From a phage, in sequence record PZ496580.1: a DNA stretch of 64,000 nt. The stretch is one strand, 5' to 3'. Below are positions 2,161 to 47,436 of this stretch, in pieces. Made by a program: the position numbers and the translations under genes. The notes beneath the pieces are model-generated. The model was given only the letters and a program-made list of their open reading frames with translations. It was not told where the DNA came from and made no database searches. Positions within the stretch are counted from its first letter, which is position 1. Each line of letters begins with the position of its first letter.

Positions 2161-3300
2161 ATGACACAAGAGATAGAATTACGCAATACTGGAATTAAGT
2201 TTGCGCATTTCGATGAGGACTCCGCGACATTTACCAGCATTTCAGAAAATAACTCTGTAATGTATAAACTTGAGGTTAGAGGATCTAATGCGGATTCTAC
2301 CAAACCAGCAAGGATTAGATTTAATGGAGTGGAGATCGTTGGCACTGGTTATGAAAATGGCCTAAATTTTAAAGTTCTTACTCCAACTGGACAATTACAC
2401 GAAGAAAAGGTATTCTATGGTCGAGGTGCTGTTTTGGCAATGCGTGATTATCTTTCTTTGCTGAAAGGTGATTATATCATTGCGATGGCAACGCATGGAG
2501 AATTGTTTGCAGATCCGGTAAGTGATGATGTATTTTCTAAGCTGGGATCGGTATCATTCCCGAATCACATTTTGCTACAGCAAATGCCTCGTGTATCATA
2601 TGCAGCAATTTATTCTACGAAAATGGGTAAAATTGTTTGTGAAGGTATGCAAGCGACCCACGGGGAAGGACAAGATTCATCTATACAAATTGAGAAGGTT
2701 TATGATACTATAGATGATCTTGCTATAACAGGAACACCACAACGATTTTTAGATTATCCGGTTGAATATGTTAGCGAAGATGCCGAACATTTCGAGCTAG
2801 TACAATGGCCTCATGATGAGATCAGCGCACCACTTGAATATTTTAACATAAAGGCAGGTGACAAACTATCAATATCTTTTGAATTGTTCCGTGATAGTGC
2901 CGCAGCCGCAGCCAACGTAACAGCGCGTTTCTATCACAACTACTTCACCGATGGACAATATAAAACTGGTGTTCGATACAATGCCAGCAAAAAAGATCAA
3001 TGGGAAAAGTTTGAAGCCGTCTATACCGTACCGGAAGGAGTTGATAGTGTAGTAACTGGTTGCGTTAGATATCCAACCAACTCCAATGAAGGTATTGTTA
3101 AAGTTAGAAACATACTAATAACGCCGATCAGTGGAGTCGTCAAAACTACTGGTCCTACTTCATTTGGTGTTAATGGTGTTAGAACAACTCATATTCAGGA
3201 TAACGGTGATTTTACTAACCCTGTAATGAGTCTTCTTAAACTACCCAGAGACAATAAACATATCACATCCAACAACTTTAAAGAGTTCGATGTTGATTAA
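2161..3300 (+). CDS. 35: Long tail fiber hinge connector gp35 (379 aa)
   Basis: Position between 34 and 36; size close to T4 gp35 (372 aa). Assignment mainly by synteny. Confidence 0.7.
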   Translation: MTQEIELRNTGIKFAHFDEDSATFTSISENNSVMYKLEVRGSNADSTKPARIRFNGVEIVGTGYENGLNFKVLTPTGQLHEEKVFYGRGAVLAMRDYLSLLKGDYIIAMATHGELFADPVSDDVFSKLGSVSFPNHILLQQMPRVSYAAIYSTKMGKIVCEGMQATHGEGQDSSIQIEKVYDTIDDLAITGTPQRFLDYPVEYVSEDAEHFELVQWPHDEISAPLEYFNIKAGDKLSISFELFRDSAAAAANVTARFYHNYFTDGQYKTGVRYNASKKDQWEKFEAVYTVPEGVDSVVTGCVRYPTNSNEGIVKVRNILITPISGVVKTTGPTSFGVNGVRTTHIQDNGDFTNPVMSLLKLPRDNKHITSNNFKEFDVD

Positions 3301-3311
3301 CATTTTTAACA

Positions 3312-3340
3312 AGCCGATCCATGTGGTCGGCTTTATTTTT
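3312..3340 (+). terminator. Rho-independent terminator after gene 35
   Basis: Hairpin AGCCGA-N9-TCGGCT followed by TTTATTTTTAT. Confidence 0.6.
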
Positions 3341-3462
3341 ATACAGTTGGTTAAATTATAACCAAAACGAAGAAAGATCTTTAGAATATAGAAAAGTTTG
3401 TTTCGGTTAAAAATTAGTCAGTGCCTACGGCACGTCGCGAAGCGATATTTTGTTAACATTCT

Positions 3463-3470
3463 ATAAATAC
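3463..3470 (+). promoter_or_regulatory. T4-type late promoter TATAAATA upstream of gene 36
   Basis: Exact TATAAATA 33 nt upstream of the gp36 ATG. Confidence 0.6.
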
Positions 3471-3502
3471 TCGGAACTATAACTAATTTTTGAGGTTACT
3501 TT

Positions 3503-4993
3503 ATGGCAGATTTGAAACATGGATCTACTGTAGGCGGATCTCCCATTTGGACGCAAGGAAACTTGACGATCCAGCCAGCGGGAGATCAGCTTTTCTACAA
3601 AGGTCATAAAATCTATACCGCTTTTGATAGACCTTCGGCTACCGATTTTGATGCTGTTAGTGCATCCGAAGGTGGCACATTTCAAAAGCAAGTTCATTTC
3701 GAGGAAGGTTTAAGCGTAGGTAGCGCATCGGCTGGAGAAACCAAAAAGAATGGTATCTTTAAAGGCCAGAGTGATGCTGCTAATTTTGACGGCGTAAGCT
3801 GGGGTTTGCATTCATGGAAGTCAATCGGCTTTGTTAATGCCCGTGATGGCGTTATCATGGCGTATATTGACACCACAACGGGCGAATTTAAGTCTAAAGG
3901 GACTATCGAAGGGACAACCATTAAAGACACAGGTCAACGCGTCTACAGCCCTGTTAATAAACCGACGAATAATGATTTGGATTTGGTTTCCCGTCGCGGT
4001 GATACTCTCACAGGAACATATAATTTAAACACTGTCACTGTTAAACTATCGGTTGATTCGAAATTAATTGCAAGGGAACGTGATTTAATTAATTTTGATG
4101 CGACTAAGATCTATTATGGTAACGTTCTTGATACGTTGGTCTTCCGAAGTAAAGATGAGCCTACCATTTTTGTTAATGGCAAAGAAGGTCGTTTTTATCA
4201 CACCAACAATAAACCAACTAAAGCCGATGTTGGACTAGGCAATGTCACCAATGATGCACAGGTTAAACGTGCTGGTGATATTATGGAAGGTAACTTGCAA
4301 GCGCCTAGAATGTTGGCGACAAACGATCCTGCTGGTCCTAATGAATTGGTTCGTTTGAGCTACTTTGAGAAAAAATCAATGGTAGCAAATCCAACCATCA
4401 TTGGAAACGTTGATTGGAACACTCTTATTAATCGCGGTATCTATCGTGTGGAAAATGCTGGGTCAGGTACTAACAAACCGTCTGATAGCTATTATAACGG
4501 CGTTTTGATGGTATATCGCCCAGAAGATGCGGTCGGTACTCGTCGAATTGTTCAGGTTTATTATCCTGAATCTATTGACCATCCGATGTGCTGGCGTTCT
4601 TGTTCTAATGAATCATGGACTGCATGGAACTATGTAGATCACCGTAAATTAGCCGATATTCGCTATGTTAACGTAACTGGCGATACCATGACAGGACAGT
4701 TAACTGTTCCGGCTGCAAATGGCGTTAAAACGGCTAGAGGTGCATATAATGGTGATAACTACTATGCTGGGTTAAATAGTGCTGATGGCACGGCTATGAT
4801 TCACCGTATCAGCGATATTAAAGCCACCGAAAAATTGGGTATTACGCACGATTCTAAAGCTGTTTTCATTAAAGCGCGTGGAAATACTCAAGACACAGAC
4901 CGCTATGAACTTTACCACGAAGGCCATAAACCGACACCCGCAGAGGTTGGCGCGGTTCCACTTAATGCGGTGATTGATTTTGGTACTTTCTAA
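3503..4993 (+). CDS. 36: Long tail fiber distal-half connector gp36, enlarged (496 aa vs 221 aa in T4)
   Basis: N-terminus MADLKHGSTVGGSPIWTQGN...PAGD matches remembered T4 gp36 N-terminus MADLKVGSTTGGSVIWHQGN. SD GAGG before ATG. Confidence 0.85.
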   Translation: MADLKHGSTVGGSPIWTQGNLTIQPAGDQLFYKGHKIYTAFDRPSATDFDAVSASEGGTFQKQVHFEEGLSVGSASAGETKKNGIFKGQSDAANFDGVSWGLHSWKSIGFVNARDGVIMAYIDTTTGEFKSKGTIEGTTIKDTGQRVYSPVNKPTNNDLDLVSRRGDTLTGTYNLNTVTVKLSVDSKLIARERDLINFDATKIYYGNVLDTLVFRSKDEPTIFVNGKEGRFYHTNNKPTKADVGLGNVTNDAQVKRAGDIMEGNLQAPRMLATNDPAGPNELVRLSYFEKKSMVANPTIIGNVDWNTLINRGIYRVENAGSGTNKPSDSYYNGVLMVYRPEDAVGTRRIVQVYYPESIDHPMCWRSCSNESWTAWNYVDHRKLADIRYVNVTGDTMTGQLTVPAANGVKTARGAYNGDNYYAGLNSADGTAMIHRISDIKATEKLGITHDSKAVFIKARGNTQDTDRYELYHEGHKPTPAEVGAVPLNAVIDFGTF

Positions 4994-41803: not shown

Positions 41804-42032
41804 TCACACATTCCATAATATTAAATGCTAACACATCTTCATCAATGTTGTAAACACTTGCCGCCTTCACTTTAACTAATGTGTCTCTGCGATCTGGCAA
41901 CATGATAACATAATCCAGTGTCGCCGGATCATATGTCATAAAGGGGTCAATATAAACCCCTTTATTCAATGCCAGATATTCGCGAAGACCTTCTATAACC
42001 CTGTGTCTAAGGTAGGTCATCGATAGAATCAT
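41769..42032 (-). CDS. Hypothetical protein (87 aa)
   Basis: ORF in the 47-46 interval. Confidence 0.5.
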   Translation of the reverse strand: MILSMTYLRHRVIEGLREYLALNKGVYIDPFMTYDPATLDYVIMLPDRRDTLVKVKAASVYNIDEDVLAFNIMECVIAEWINGKVKF

Positions 42033-42619
42033 TTTAGTTTATGTTCCTCTAAAAATTCTTCAATTTCACCTTGCAGGTCTTCCGCTTGCTGTTCCAGAAT
42101 ATCGCGAAATTCACCTACAGTCAAGCGGTAATCACATTTCACCAGTCGATGCGGGAGAATATACCCTTTATACATTGTCTCTGACGCTTCCAGGAATACC
42201 CCGCTATGCATGACGGAGATCCAACCTGTTAACGTCAATGGAGTATTCGGAAAATAATACTTGCTGGATTGTTTCCACTGGACGAAAGCACCATATACAA
42301 TCGGATTATATTCACCAACCACACTCTTAATAATGGATTCTACTTTGTCTTTTACAAATACGCCCATATCCATAGTGGTCATCAATTCTTGTGGATGAAT
42401 CACTTTAAGGTAACGACGATAGTCATCATCATAATACAGCTTAACTACTGGTTCACCCCACATAGACGAAATATTCGCTTTCAGATATCCATAAATCGGA
42501 TTCTTATCATAGGATTGTTTTAGCGTGTAGGTATGCAACAGCGTAATAAAATGTCGCATTACCAGTTTATCTGGATCAACCGCGCCCATAGTCGTATTCA
42601 TAATATGTTCCTTTCTCAA
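42029..42619 (-). CDS. Hypothetical protein (196 aa)
   Basis: ORF in the 47-46 interval. Confidence 0.5.
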   Translation of the reverse strand: MRKEHIMNTTMGAVDPDKLVMRHFITLLHTYTLKQSYDKNPIYGYLKANISSMWGEPVVKLYYDDDYRRYLKVIHPQELMTTMDMGVFVKDKVESIIKSVVGEYNPIVYGAFVQWKQSSKYYFPNTPLTLTGWISVMHSGVFLEASETMYKGYILPHRLVKCDYRLTVGEFRDILEQQAEDLQGEIEEFLEEHKLK

Positions 42620-42899
42620 TTGCTTCTTGTTTCAGGTCTTCTAACATTTCATCAATAGCTTGTTTCAGCATATGACGCAGAGTAAAGTAGTAGTGTTCAT
42701 CAAATTCTATTTCTCGACGGGGAATAGAACGGAACTTACATTTAACGACTGTATCAGTCATTCGTTTTTCGACCAACATACGCACTTCTTGATGTTCTTT
42801 AGAATACCAGACCATCACATGCATATCTTTACGGCGAGCGAACATAGGCAAAGACGCATTAAACCATATTACCTTTTGTGCAAGTGTAAGGGTTTTCAT
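42576..42899 (-). CDS. Hypothetical protein (107 aa)
   Basis: ORF in the 47-46 interval. Confidence 0.5.
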   Translation of the reverse strand: MKTLTLAQKVIWFNASLPMFARRKDMHVMVWYSKEHQEVRMLVEKRMTDTVVKCKFRSIPRREIEFDEHYYFTLRHMLKQAIDEMLEDLKQEAIEKGTYYEYDYGRG

Positions 42900-43200: not shown

Positions 43201-44235
43201 CTAACTTTTTGCGCTATTTACTTCGGCTAAAAGTTCATCAGAAATACGCTTGACCGCCGCAAGTTCTTCCGGTTCTAGGTTTTGTTCTTCCAGATATTCA
43301 TAGACCATCTGAATAGTGCTTTTAACTTCAATAACACCTGTTTCCTGTGATGCGCTACTCTCCAGTTTATGGACCACTTTTAGCTTGTGTACAACGGCCT
43401 CTAACGCGCTTTCTAACTTAGTTAACCCATTATCAGCGACCGTTGCGATAAGACGCACACTAAGCCCCTTAAAGCGTTCTACATCGATTTTATCATCTGA
43501 CGGGTAAGTGATACGCACATGATAAGTTTTGTCATTCTGAATAAACTCTTTTTTGTGTGTATCGGTATCGAATACCCAAAAACCACGCGGATCGTTTTCG
43601 TCACCCGCCGTTAGTGTGTATGGTGTACCGATATACGTTACGTTACCCCCATCACTAATAGTATGAAAATGACCAGAAAACACTTCACGGTATTTCTTGA
43701 GGAAGTCCGCGCTATAACCTTCGGATTTTAGCCCTTTATAGAAATAGTAACCGGACAATTCCCAATGGCCTACACAATATTCGCTGAATGAGTTTTGAAT
43801 AAACTCTAAAATCTCTGATTTATTGTCATCACAAAACCACGGGAACAGATCAAATGATACACCATCAAAGGTAACTGTTTCTGGTTTATCAATAACCTTA
43901 ATACAATCATACTGGCTTAACACTTCACGCGGTGCGTTAGGCTGGATCTTGTTTCGTTTAAACATATCATGATTCCCGACCGTGATATAACAAGTAATAC
44001 CAGCCTCTTCCAGTAGCGGGATGATTTTCGTTCTATTAAAACGCATAGTTGCATGTGTGATTGCTTTTCGGCAATCAAACCAGTCCCCTGTCTGAATCCA
44101 TGCCTTAATATTATGTTTTTTTGAATAATCGACTGCCTTTTTAATAGTATCAAGAATATACTCATGTATCCACGGATCATCGTTGCCGATACCAGTATGC
44201 AGATCACCCAAAAGCAAAATTTTCATATTATACAT
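43201..44235 (-). CDS. 47: Recombination endonuclease subunit gp47 (Mre11/SbcD-like, 344 aa)
   Basis: Phosphoesterase motifs GDLH, GDWFD, GNHD, GHWE, GHFH; TAGDENDPRGFW matches remembered T4 gp47. Confidence 0.9.
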   Translation of the reverse strand: MYNMKILLLGDLHTGIGNDDPWIHEYILDTIKKAVDYSKKHNIKAWIQTGDWFDCRKAITHATMRFNRTKIIPLLEEAGITCYITVGNHDMFKRNKIQPNAPREVLSQYDCIKVIDKPETVTFDGVSFDLFPWFCDDNKSEILEFIQNSFSEYCVGHWELSGYYFYKGLKSEGYSADFLKKYREVFSGHFHTISDGGNVTYIGTPYTLTAGDENDPRGFWVFDTDTHKKEFIQNDKTYHVRITYPSDDKIDVERFKGLSVRLIATVADNGLTKLESALEAVVHKLKVVHKLESSASQETGVIEVKSTIQMVYEYLEEQNLEPEELAAVKRISDELLAEVNSAKS

Positions 44236-44241
44236 AATCTC

Positions 44242-44796
44242 CTAAAAATTTTTAACACCATATTCACCAAAATAAAGATCAACCGCTTTGTCATAAGCTC
44301 TGGCCGCATCTTCTTCGTTGACATAATACCCAAGAGATATTAGTTTATCATTATTTCGTATTCTTGCAACCCATTTCTTCGTATGTTTATGCCAGCTAAC
44401 CCCTTTATACTTGCTTGCTTTATTCTTGTACTTTCCAACGTTACAAGCATTTTTCTTTGCGTCGGACTCTCTAAGATTGCGCGGTGCGTTGTTTAAAGGA
44501 TTTCGGTCTATATGATCTATAATTTCTGGTTGTGTTCCATGCTCAAGAAACCATACAATACGATGTACATATGGCTTTAAAACCCTCCCATTATCCATAA
44601 CAATTGCAATTTGGAGATGATCCTGACTTTTAAAAGTTTTTACTTTATCTCCTGCCTTATAAAACTTTCCTTCGTAATTCTTTCCTCCGGCTCGGCTATT
44701 CTTTAAATGATAAAGAATACCATCGTCGTCATGTCTATATCTTTCTCGTATAATTCGTTGCGTTTCTTCATCCCACAATTTGGAACGTCTACTCAT
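44242..44796 (-). CDS. Freestanding HNH homing endonuclease with C-terminal AP2 DNA-binding domain (184 aa)
   Basis: HRIVWFLEHG...IDHIDRNPLNN HNH motif; YKGVSWHKHTKKWVARIRNNDKLISLGYYVNEEDAARAYDKA is an AP2 domain. Confidence 0.8.
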   Translation of the reverse strand: MSRRSKLWDEETQRIIRERYRHDDDGILYHLKNSRAGGKNYEGKFYKAGDKVKTFKSQDHLQIAIVMDNGRVLKPYVHRIVWFLEHGTQPEIIDHIDRNPLNNAPRNLRESDAKKNACNVGKYKNKASKYKGVSWHKHTKKWVARIRNNDKLISLGYYVNEEDAARAYDKAVDLYFGEYGVKNF

Positions 44797-44866
44797 AGTC
44801 TCTTCCTCTCTTCGTTTTCGATGCTCTCACTATATCACAGAAAAATAAAAAGGGAAACCCCTTTCA
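44242..44866 (-). mobile_element. Homing-endonuclease insertion unit (terminator, extended -10 promoter, HNH-AP2 ORF) between genes 55 and 47
   Basis: Minus-strand AAAGGG-GTTT-CCCTTT + TTATTTTT terminator (44841-44866) and TGaTATAGT promoter (44826-44837) directly upstream of the HNH ORF. Confidence 0.55.
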
Positions 44867-44886
44867 GAGTCTCCCTTATAAAGCCA

Positions 44887-45174
44887 TTACAGCATACTTA
44901 ATACCGTTTGCCGTGTACTAACCCACATAGCAGAAAGCAGTTCTGGCGTGTGTGGCTGTTTGTAGATATCACGTAATTTTCCGATAGCGTAGATATACGC
45001 ATCACGGTTATCATCGATGATAGCTTGTTCAGCCCACCTCTTAAGGCGTGCAATCTCTCGCGAGTTCTTACGCAAGATCTTTTCCGCTTTCTTAGCGGCT
45101 TTCGCCTCTAGTTCTGCTTGTACTTTGTCTACTTCATTCACTACAATCTGGTCATGTTGTTCATCGTAAGTCAT
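44887..45174 (-). CDS. Hypothetical protein (95 aa)
   Basis: ORF downstream of 55. Confidence 0.5.
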   Translation of the reverse strand: MTYDEQHDQIVVNEVDKVQAELEAKAAKKAEKILRKNSREIARLKRWAEQAIIDDNRDAYIYAIGKLRDIYKQPHTPELLSAMWVSTRQTVLSML

Positions 45175-45175
45175 A

Positions 45176-45409
45176 TTATTTTCCTTCTGGGATATAGTCG
45201 ATGATTAAAGAAAATTCATCTTCTGATACATTATAGCTATGTGAGATTGTACCCGTAAAGACCTCAAGGTCCGGTGATTTGATATTGCACGGATCGATAA
45301 TCACCGGAACGCCGCAATCTCTCAAAAATAATTTGGCGAAATACGGCACAAGGTCAGTTTCAAACTCTGCTTCTTCCAGCAAACGGGAAATGTTAATTTT
45401 CAATCTCAT
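45176..45409 (-). CDS. Hypothetical protein (77 aa)
   Basis: ORF overlapping the gp55 stop. Confidence 0.5.
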
Positions 45410-45926
45410 AAAATTGGTCCAGGCTAGGCAATTCCTCGGTCAATACATCTTCAACCTTTGGCGCTTTCGGTTTATTGACCGATTCCTCGTAGTTGTTGAT
45501 TTTATCGTAAATGTCCTGTATGAATGCCTCATCCGCAATCTGGCACATATCAGCGTCGCGTTCGTCATATACATGATGCACAAAATATTTGTATTTTGCG
45601 GCGGTTGCTGTTCTTTCTTTTTTAATGCGCTGTACAAAGGCATTAAAGCACGCTTGCGTAATGTAAGCATGAGGATTTTTATACTTTGTCTCGTCAAAAT
45701 TAATCAAACCCTTGACCGCCGCTTCGATTCCATCGTCGATCATTTCTTCGCGCCACGTTTGACTATAGCCAGAAAAGTTAAAACGCCGTGATAGATTTTT
45801 AGAGATTTGCATAATTGCTAGGCCGATTTGGTCGCTCATTGGCACTTGTCGACCTTCGGCTGCAATTCGTTGTTTCCAACGGCAAATTTCTTCGTAAAGC
45901 TCTTTATTGTTTACATAATCAGACAC
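45393..45926 (-). CDS. 55: Late-transcription sigma factor gp55 (177 aa)
   Basis: [11 protein letters not shown]...[22 protein letters not shown]...[29 protein letters not shown] is near-identical to remembered T4 gp55. Confidence 0.95.
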
Positions 45927-45966: not shown

Positions 45967-47436
45967 CTATTCCCCATTACCATTATACTTTCTTTGCTTA
46001 GTTATCCACACTCTAACCATCTCTACAGATTCGCCGTCAGACGGATCAAGAGTTTTTCCTTTTTTCTTCATGCGGTACTTAAATCCGTTAAATCTTGCAT
46101 TCTCTTGCTCGTTAAAGTCGAACATCTTTTTAAATGATTTTCGCCCTTTACGCTCACCGCATTCTAGAGGAATCATTCGGTCTGTTATTACATTGGCATT
46201 AGGTAGAAACGTTTTTAGATAATCTACCAACGCCCAATCAGGAACATATAGATTAACATTCTCCTTGCTCTCGTTGTCTCTCAGGTTACAACGCAAACAT
46301 AATTGAAATGCTGGTTCCAGATAATCAGACACATGACGCGCTTTCAAAAACTCGTTTGTTGGGAGATCGCAACTATTAGCAAGACCTTTTAAAATATCAA
46401 TCTCCCATCGTTGAGGGTTAAAGCTGAACATCACAGCAACATTTTTATGATGAATGTAAGAGTTAAGACCATAAGATCCGTAAGGTATCCGCTCACCAAT
46501 ACCATTTGTGCACGCTTCTCGGTCCCGATTCACGGTATAAATGAAGTCATCACCACATTCATTTTTAACCATATCAACAAGACGTTCAAAGGTATTGTTT
46601 GTTTCTGACTGGTGACGCGACCATCGTTCAGAGTCCGTCATAAGGATGATATTAACTCTATCTGTATTTTTATACTCTTTGAAATATAGTCTGGATTCTA
46701 GCGCACTCGGAACAAAATCACAATTTGCATAGTATCGTAGATACTTCCCACTATATGTATCAAAGAGATTTGCACATGCTATCGTAACCTTTTTAAAGTC
46801 TCCCCACGTACCGTGTTTGTTATCGTTCAAGAAAACAATTTTCGACCCATTCTTCCGGTGGCCTTCGTTATGTTTTACCATAACGTTGATTTTCTTCTCT
46901 AATAACGCCTCATAAAGCCCTCTAAGAGAAGAATCGATCATATCAGTACCATCCTTTGCACTTTCTATCTTTTCTTTGATAGCGGCCTTCTCAGAGTCTT
47001 TTAGAACTAAGTTCTGTAGGCATTCCGATTCGTCGGCGATTGGTTCGCAATGCTTCGTGATAAGTTCAAGATTAGACTTAAACGGATACTCATTAAATTC
47101 AACCAGTTGAGGAACTTCATCAATGTAAAGAGCATAATCACCAAACATTTTTGAACGTTCCATATTAGATAACGCTGTATGTGTAATGAATATCACATCA
47201 GCACCATCTTTAACTGATTGCATTATCGACGCTTGCACTGTCTTAAGGCTTCTTAGTCTTGTGCTATCAATCAAGACAGCACGACCGCCCATTCTTTTAA
47301 ACTTATTGTAAGATTGTTCACTTAAAACACGAGATGGCGAAGCAATAACCGCTTTTTCTTTTGTCTCTAGGACGTGGGAAAGTATAGCATCAGTTTTCCC
47401 CGCCGCTGGCAATGCGATTAATGTTTCAATCTTCAT
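45967..47436 (-). CDS. Unassigned P-loop NTPase (489 aa) with helicase-like motifs I, Ia, II at the N-terminus
   Basis: Walker A ALPAAGKTD (res 8-16), ASPSR (Ia-like), YIDEVP (Walker B/DExx-like); Cys-containing C-terminal half without recognisable helicase motifs III-VI. Confidence 0.6.
   Translation of the reverse strand: MKIETLIALPAAGKTDAILSHVLETKEKAVIASPSRVLSEQSYNKFKRMGGRAVLIDSTRLRSLKTVQASIMQSVKDGADVIFITHTALSNMERSKMFGDYALYIDEVPQLVEFNEYPFKSNLELITKHCEPIADESECLQNLVLKDSEKAAIKEKIESAKDGTDMIDSSLRGLYEALLEKKINVMVKHNEGHRKNGSKIVFLNDNKHGTWGDFKKVTIACANLFDTYSGKYLRYYANCDFVPSALESRLYFKEYKNTDRVNIILMTDSERWSRHQSETNNTFERLVDMVKNECGDDFIYTVNRDREACTNGIGERIPYGSYGLNSYIHHKNVAVMFSFNPQRWEIDILKGLANSCDLPTNEFLKARHVSDYLEPAFQLCLRCNLRDNESKENVNLYVPDWALVDYLKTFLPNANVITDRMIPLECGERKGRKSFKKMFDFNEQENARFNGFKYRMKKKGKTLDPSDGESVEMVRVWITKQRKYNGNGE

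Follow-up and report, generated by a model that had tools for sequence, protein, structure and literature searches.

In the stretch of phage DNA that we analysed (the window; 64,000 nucleotides), a promoterless, ORF-only insertion of 570 bp that encodes an HNH-AP2 homing endonuclease (the RB49 ORF040 allele) very probably lies precisely on the gene 47 start codon. The window comes from a coliphage of the RB49 type (Krischvirus). Over the 2.7 kb around the endonuclease it is 97.7-98.7% identical to the Krischvirus coliphages RB49, JK32 and MIZ4/5, and the endonuclease product is 98.9-100% identical in amino acid sequence to those encoded by their genes. The gene is RB49ORF040c (AAQ15315.1), which has the same position between a-gt.4 and 47 and the same junctions, and differs in nothing essential (window and RB49 differ at 7 nucleotides in 7 codons, with 5 synonymous and 2 conservative changes). 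As the same gene as RB49ORF040c, it was already known and does not count as a discovery. The RB49 record has contained it since 2003, annotated as a putative endonuclease that is HNH endonuclease-like and has a DNA-binding AP2 domain, and it is also annotated in JK32, MIZ4 and MIZ5.

In the available text of Nolan et al. 2006, RB49ORF040c is placed among the "putative mobile DNA elements" (AP2 + HNH) and named an AP2-HNH homing endonuclease gene (HEG). The portion of Petrov et al. 2010 at hand gives a count of one HNH-AP2 HEG for RB49 and of zero for phi-1, and Arbiol et al. 2010, in the accessible excerpt, describe ORF040 as an isolated gene unique to RB49. The accessible parts of the published accounts of RB49ORF040c make no mention of two features described below, the capture of the gene 47 Shine-Dalgarno (SD) sequence and ATG by the insert and the linked tract within gene 47.

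The ORF encodes an HNH_3 nuclease domain and an AP2 domain

The endonuclease ORF is intact and lies on the minus strand at 44242..44796 (184 aa; ATG at 44796-44794, TAG stop at 44244-44242). Its product contains an HNH_3 nuclease domain at aa 76-117 (44446..44571, minus strand), which scores 44.7 bits in Pfam against a gathering cut-off of 24.8, and an AP2 DNA-binding domain at aa 128-171 (44284..44415, minus strand), which scores 41 bits against a cut-off of 33.3 and whose fold extends on to aa 184. The HNH motif (HIDRNPLNN, aa 95-103) and C-terminal AP2 domain that the first-pass annotation had read in this ORF are thus borne out. The product also matches PHROG 99 "HNH endonuclease" (E 1.4e-50), and a sequence search of the PDB with the protein independently found WRI1 (E 9e-10). 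An AlphaFold model built from the homologue alignment was confident (pLDDT 92.1, pTM 0.83).

To describe residue conservation, we used an alignment of the ORF040-type protein with 45 database homologues. Within the motif D94-H95 ... N103/N107 ... N116, residues D94, H95 and N107 were invariant in all 46 sequences, and H78, N103 and N116 were conserved in at least 90% of them. Judged from this alignment, the conserved residues form the H-N-N catalytic pattern of the I-HmuI type, and the active site is intact. Taken together, the Pfam and PHROG matches, the conservation, the model and the PDB match place the assignment of an HNH_3 + AP2 protein far beyond chance.

In Pfam the ORF had HNH_3 and AP2 matches only, with no GIY-YIG domain. 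A tblastn search with the protein found no second copy of the endonuclease in the whole window, and across the window no Rfam family, introns included, came up to its gathering score. The endonuclease ORF is a separate gene between a-gt.4 and 47, outside any intron or intein.

The insert takes over the start signals of gene 47

On the minus strand the gene order is 55, a-gt.5, a-gt.4, HEG, 47, four small ORFs and gene 46. Gene 55 (45393..45926, minus strand; PHROG "late sigma factor") is followed by a-gt.5 (45176..45409, minus strand; RB49 annotation) and by a-gt.4 (44887..45174, minus strand; DUF2654, from Pfam and the RB49 annotation), which is the immediate upstream neighbour of the HEG. 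Gene 47, which encodes an Mre11/SbcD-like recombination nuclease subunit (43201..44226, minus strand; Pfam Metallophos; PHROG 100, 1.7e-125; RB49 annotation), lies directly downstream of the HEG and is presumably co-transcribed with it. The earlier placement of the ORF "between genes 47 and 55" was therefore loosely right, although its upstream neighbour is a-gt.4 rather than 55 and the ORF abuts gene 47. Just past gene 55 on the coding strand, at 45967..47436 (minus strand), we also noted a 489-aa ORF with a weak match to a DEAD/P-loop NTPase (Pfam E 3.4e-6; 27.3 bits against a cut-off of 26). This ORF is RB49ORF044c, which is "hypothetical" in all records and matches PHROG 2467, a family of unknown function, over its full length.

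We mapped the junctions of the insert by aligning the window and RB49 with Phi1 and GEC-3S, two phages in which the site is empty. The segment missing from empty-site genomes spans 570 bp at 44227..44796 (minus strand; alignments with Phi1, GEC-3S and phiS) and consists of the 555-bp ORF and 15 more bases. Its edges are ambiguous by 4 nt, as ATGA stands at both ends and 44223-44792 is an equally valid placement. The sequence of the empty site is hairpin-TTTTTATTTTT-C(T/A)GTGATATAGT-GAGAGCATCGAAAACGAAGAGAGGAAGAGACT-ATGAAAATTTTGCTT, which corresponds to the a-gt.4 terminator, an extended -10, a Shine-Dalgarno sequence and the start of gene 47; in empty genomes the terminator, -10 and SD are followed by ATGAAAATT, which belongs to gene 47. 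The window is identical to the empty-site sequence up to ATGA and then continues into the endonuclease ORF (ATGAGTAGA), and after 570 bp the insert terminates in AATTTTTAGGAGATTATGTATAATATGAAAATTTTGCTT.

Alignment of occupied and empty sites shows that the endonuclease ORF opens on the former SD and ATG of gene 47. The SD region GAGAGGAAGAGA (44799..44810, minus strand), which is here used by the HEG, is that of gene 47 in empty genomes and is annotated as the gene 47 RBS in the empty-site genome Ec_Makalu_001. At the other end, the last 18 nt of the insert (TAGGAGATTATGTATAAT; 44227..44244, minus strand) bring a new Shine-Dalgarno sequence and ATG for gene 47; the substitute SD, TAGGAG, overlaps the HEG stop, and an alternative in-frame gene 47 ATG lies at 44235, within the insert 3' end. 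The substitute SD is 3 nt from the ATG at 44235 and 12 nt from the ATG at 44226, spacings that are suboptimal for either start and make the way in which gene 47 is translated uncertain. Annotators are split on this start, with 44226 called in RB49 and 44235 in JK32 and MIZ4.

The insert has a GC content of 35.8% and a GC3 of 27.6%, while GC3 in the neighbouring genes is 37-43%; this low GC3 suggests, on composition, a foreign origin. At the insert we found no terminal inverted or direct repeats and no target duplication beyond ATGA. A transposon or IS element was considered and rejected, since there are no such repeats and the protein is a nuclease with an AP2 domain, not a transposase. The extreme 3' end of the insert also holds a sigma-70-like pair (TTAAAA, 17 nt, TATAAT; 10/12 matches; 44227-44255, minus strand), which travels with the insert and whose -10 ends right before the gene 47 ATG. 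This pair is probably a chance match, because its transcript could not include the gene 47 ATG.

The site is empty in most Krischvirus records

Among 59 Krischvirus records, the endonuclease gene was present in five (RB49 twice, JK32, MIZ4 and MIZ5), and in 53 the site was empty, with both flanks covered and a clean 570-bp gap. The remaining record, phiS, has another sequence of the same length at the site. Carriers are thus a minority among phages that are otherwise 96-99% identical. Universal presence of the gene at this position, the outcome that would have spoken against mobility, is not the case, and the distribution favours mobility. With its domains and with empty-site alleles as the majority (53/59), the first-pass reading of this ORF as a freestanding HNH-AP2 homing endonuclease gene is supported. 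We also observed that OZ035808.1, which is named "Krischvirus RB49", lacks the HEG and has a gene 47 haplotype of the empty-site type (positions 3001-3581), so that the insert is polymorphic even inside this named species.

The sequence found in phiS is a second allele of the insertion. Its gp018 (WWV92284.1) is a 184-aa HNH-AP2 ORF with 47% protein identity to the window endonuclease. The phiS insert DNA is ~40% divergent from that of the window, and the upstream flank is 1-2% divergent. The phiS endonuclease sits after the same ATGA, with the same captured gene 47 SD and ATG, and its insert ends with its own replacement RBS for gene 47 (TAAGAGGATAATATT-ATG). The two alleles are therefore alike in length (184 aa), domains, insertion point, capture of SD and ATG, and provision of a replacement SD, and differ in that the replacement RBS of phiS is a different and better spaced one. 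Two old, divergent alleles at one exact site in a young, homogeneous backbone are the pattern expected, on this comparison of sequences, of a homing site rather than of vertical inheritance and loss.

The insert is linked to a divergent tract in gene 47

To compare the flanks of occupied and empty sites, we aligned ~7.1 kb from four carriers (the window, JK32, MIZ4 and RB49) with the same region of 11 empty genomes. All 12 fixed carrier-versus-empty differences (12/12) fall within 68 bp at 44118-44185, which corresponds to gene 47 nt 42-109. In the interval 44080-44229, at the 5' end of gene 47, divergence was 14.2% between the groups, 0.3% among carriers and 4.4% among empties. On the upstream side (44802-44949) the corresponding values were 1.3%, 1.0% and 1.65%, and between-group divergence was 1-3% in most other 150-bp bins of the alignment. 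Gene 47 nt 1-41 are the same in both groups except for nt 18, which is synonymous and variable within both, and against Phi1 the tract ends at gene 47 nt 125. We accordingly delimit a HEG-linked haplotype tract at gene 47 nt 42-125 (44102..44185, minus strand) as a candidate target, immunity or co-conversion region. Its changes are mainly synonymous, and the amino acid changes are G15N, V20I, E33D, E37K and V42A. Across the 59 Krischvirus records, the 5 carrier records and no others reached at least 99% identity over the 122-nt 5' end of gene 47; identity in the other 54 was 82-88%.

The gene 47 5' tract of phiS is a third haplotype, which shares 7/12 of the carrier-specific bases, including GG -> AA at gene 47 nt 43-44, which gives Asn15. 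At gene 47 codons 14-15, both endonuclease-bearing haplotypes have replaced GGTGGC (with GGCAAC or GGTAAT), and none of the 11 aligned empty genomes has done so. This change turns Gly15 of gp47 into Asn and removes a GC-rich GGTGGCG element.

At 42433-42882, 1.4 kb from the tract, the carriers differ from one another by 9-17%, and they are therefore not one clone. Linkage of the tract could nevertheless partly reflect shared descent, since there are only four distinct carrier genomes and these are close relatives. Its one-sidedness may reflect low variation upstream, where the flank has no divergent tract, rather than the position of a cut. As a pattern in the alignment, the linked tract fits co-conversion with the HEG, target-site immunity or both, and does not locate the cut.

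Two further observations concern this part of the alignment. A hypervariable patch at 42283-42882 shows 7-26% divergence among Krischvirus genomes, compared with 1-3% elsewhere; it falls in the ORFs 42029..42619 and 42576..42899 (both minus strand; RB49ORF036c/037c), between genes 46 and 47, and in it the four HEG-carrying genomes are 7-17% apart. In ELT4, the annotated gene 47 (2250-3095) lacks 180 nt at the 5' end, yet the sequence stays in frame in the alignment for the first 300 nt or more, so that this is probably a difference in annotation or start call and not a truncation.

Loss of an ancestral gene and a retained function are unlikely

A history in which the gene was ancestral and was lost from most Krischvirus phages by ATGA microhomology deletion would turn the polymorphism into a sign of decay, not of current mobility. 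Such a loss is consistent with the 4-nt repeat that bounds the segment, with the perfect gene 47 start that deletion between the repeats restores, and with carriers that are few and closely related, but it sits poorly with the degree to which the two alleles have diverged in DNA at an identical site relative to their backbones. Nor would it be expected to leave the carriers with a foreign-looking gene 47 tract in perfect linkage to the insert, an insert with atypical GC3, strong differences among carriers 1.4 kb away, and an intact ORF in which change is mostly synonymous. We consider this explanation unlikely.

Very unlikely, in our assessment, is that homing has ceased and that the protein is kept for a function useful to the phage, such as exclusion, in which the genomes of co-infecting competitors would be nicked or cut, or regulation of the 47/46 operon by the AP2 domain. 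The catalytic residues are intact, and the patchy distribution is typical of selfish elements and not of a useful gene, although expression of the protein is tied to an early/middle recombination operon, RB16 and Slopekvirus phages have related HNH-AP2 genes in the neighbourhood of 46 and 47, and co-option of HEG domains is known. Exclusion and homing can, moreover, coexist.

The hairpin and extended -10 belong to the empty-site backbone

An intrinsic terminator-like hairpin with a T-run follows a-gt.4 at 44850..44877 (minus strand), upstream of the HEG, and an extended -10-like sequence, TGATATAGT (TGnTATAGT), matches at 44829..44837 (minus strand). In empty-site genomes both are kept in essentially identical form (1-2 substitutions) directly before gene 47, and two such genomes, GEC-3S and Ec_Makalu_001, carry a terminator annotation for the hairpin. 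Since all empty alleles examined have them, and since they stand 5' of the ORF, we assign the hairpin and the extended -10 to the backbone. A sigma-70 scan of the region found 9 promoter-like sites compared with 8.7 ± 2.9 in shuffled sequence, which is no excess; as sigma-70 sites are no commoner here than in shuffled sequence, we take the extended -10 and the other promoter calls as sequence matches only. The 5' leader did not fold better than shuffled sequences (z -0.62). Between the HEG stop (44242-44244) and the gene 47 ATG (44226), a gap of 15 nt, there is no terminator.

These observations bear on the proposal, made in the first-pass annotation, that the ORF with a terminator and extended -10 promoter of its own is a self-contained mobile cassette. 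Both sequences are physically present and do adjoin the ORF, as a moron-like cassette with its own promoter and terminator would have it. They are not the ORF's own, however: they stand 5' of it, persist essentially unchanged before gene 47 where the insert is missing, and belong to a region for which annotations of empty genomes give the a-gt.4 terminator and the gene 47 RBS. With the hairpin and -10 part of the empty-site backbone and no terminator 3' of the ORF, we reject the self-contained cassette, which we regard as exceedingly unlikely; the mobile unit in the empty-site alignments is 570 bp with no promoter, terminator or start context of its own.

The hairpin and -10 upstream of the HEG also resemble published PeSL elements, and cassette shuffling by endonuclease-independent recombination between such promoter/stem-loop elements (Arbiol et al. 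2010) would suit the PeSL-like run of hairpin, -10, SD and ATG and the isolated character that the accessible excerpt gives to ORF040, but is hardly credible when there is a single PeSL-like element, upstream only, when the 15-nt downstream junction has no stem-loop, when the flanking repeat is no longer than ATGA and when the crossover falls within the start codon and not in the PeSL body.

Relationship to other homing endonuclease genes

I-HmuI (PDB 1u3e) of Bacillus phage SPO1 is an HNH_3 enzyme that is encoded in a group I intron and acts as a strand-specific nickase. The window protein differs from it in being freestanding and in binding DNA through a predicted AP2 domain; in the available part of the source, enzymes of the I-HmuI group are described as typically binding DNA via NUMOD/HTH modules.

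The likeness to T4 mob/seg genes that had been drawn from the sequence is partial. The window HEG shares with them an intergenic, intron-less homing lifestyle in T4-like phages and, as the analogy stated, occupies a different site. It also differs from them in having no promoter of its own, and the analogy does not extend to the nuclease itself. Unlike T4 seg genes, the window HEG has no GIY-YIG domain, and unlike T4 mob genes (mobE and others, of the HNH PF01844 group), it encodes an HNH_3 nuclease of another His-Me group. In the accessible part of the His-Me finger classification, HNH_3, I-HmuI and AP2-bearing proteins form one group and T4 MobA-E belong to another.

The same domain architecture as in the window HEG is found in the HEGs of RB16, RB43 and Slopekvirus and in the IPA-HNH genes of ICP1, the last with a more divergent HNH domain. 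The HNH-AP2 copies of RB16 and Matisse are 46% identical to the window HEG and also lie in the 46/47 region, tight against adjoining genes with overlaps of start and stop codons, and differ from it in their insertion points, which are before or after gene 46. In RB16, two HNH-AP2 genes (1281-1811 and 3495-4070) stand immediately before and after gene 46, with starts and stops that overlap their neighbours, and in Matisse one (3567-4049) stands after gene 46. As these copies abut gene 46, the HNH-AP2 family appears habitually to sit inside the 46/47 operon with no signals of its own. Across T4-like genera, HNH-AP2 HEGs seem to turn up repeatedly in this recombination-nuclease operon.

We also searched the window for empty sites that correspond to the HNH-AP2 paralogues of AV108 and FL15. 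These loci are absent from the window, and a 99-nt intergenic repeat was the sole match. This element, at 3347-3445, lies between two plus-strand ORFs (2161..3300 and 3503..4993) and is followed by a late-promoter-like box, TATAAATA. It is 93% identical to intergenic DNA just upstream of the AV108 HNH-AP2 HEG (L018, 1326-1423), where the flanking genes are unrelated. A regulatory or PeSL-like repeat is one possible identity for it, a hotspot of recombination for the HEG family another.

The searchable literature yielded no report of cleavage, a cleavage site or super-Mendelian inheritance for an ORF040-type protein, and no activity or cleavage-site data for any phage AP2-HNH member.

A proposed homing mechanism

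Freestanding HEGs of T4 often have their cleavage sites in a neighbouring conserved gene, and flanking markers are co-converted with them. For the promoterless insertion at the gene 47 start codon, we propose that the endonuclease would be made from the transcript and the translation signals of gene 47, and that the substitute SD would serve the translation of gene 47 itself, which would probably be coupled to termination at the TAG that the SD overlaps. When both kinds of phage infect one cell, the endonuclease, which like I-HmuI may be a monomeric nickase, would nick or cut the insert-less allele close to the gene 47 start. Recombinational repair off the carrier genome would then transfer the insert to the recipient together with the gene 47 tract beside it. 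Protection of the carrier allele would come from the insertion, from the linked substitutions or from the two combined.

Two candidate positions for the target are about equally likely. A target of the first kind would span the insertion point and be destroyed by the insert; one of the second kind would lie at ~nt 40-110 of gene 47, where the substitutions would shield carriers. Within the tract, the GGTGGC change at codons 14-15 is a notable candidate for such protection. AP2 domains prefer GC-rich DNA according to the available text of a paper citing Magnani 2004, and a link between this preference and the codon 14-15 change is speculative.

Implications

The gene itself adds nothing new, as reviews of mobile elements in T4-like phages have covered it since 2006-2010. 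The additions made here are small: the capture of SD and ATG, the second allele in phiS, and the linkage of the gene 47 tract across 59 records. They narrow the likely target to ~100 bp around the gene 47 start, and they reveal a series of three naturally occurring alleles of a single site, namely the empty, the RB49-type and the phiS-type allele. The DNA-binding domain of AP2-HNH proteins is the presumed ancestor of the plant AP2/ERF factors.

The anatomy of this locus shows how a HEG can be inserted before an essential recombination gene without harm, by means of swapped translation signals. We tentatively raise the possibility, which we hold to be doubtful at present, that HNH-AP2 family members spread in T4-like phages as minimal "start-codon parasites" that settle on the ATG of an essential gene, usurp its promoter, SD and start codon and bring a spare SD and ATG for it, as the two 47%-identical enzymes at this one site would illustrate, and that the Gly15-to-Asn change may mark a GC-rich AP2 recognition element. 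If this were true, the codon 14-15 element would give a phage AP2-HNH endonuclease a predicted target open to direct testing, the first such prediction that we have found.
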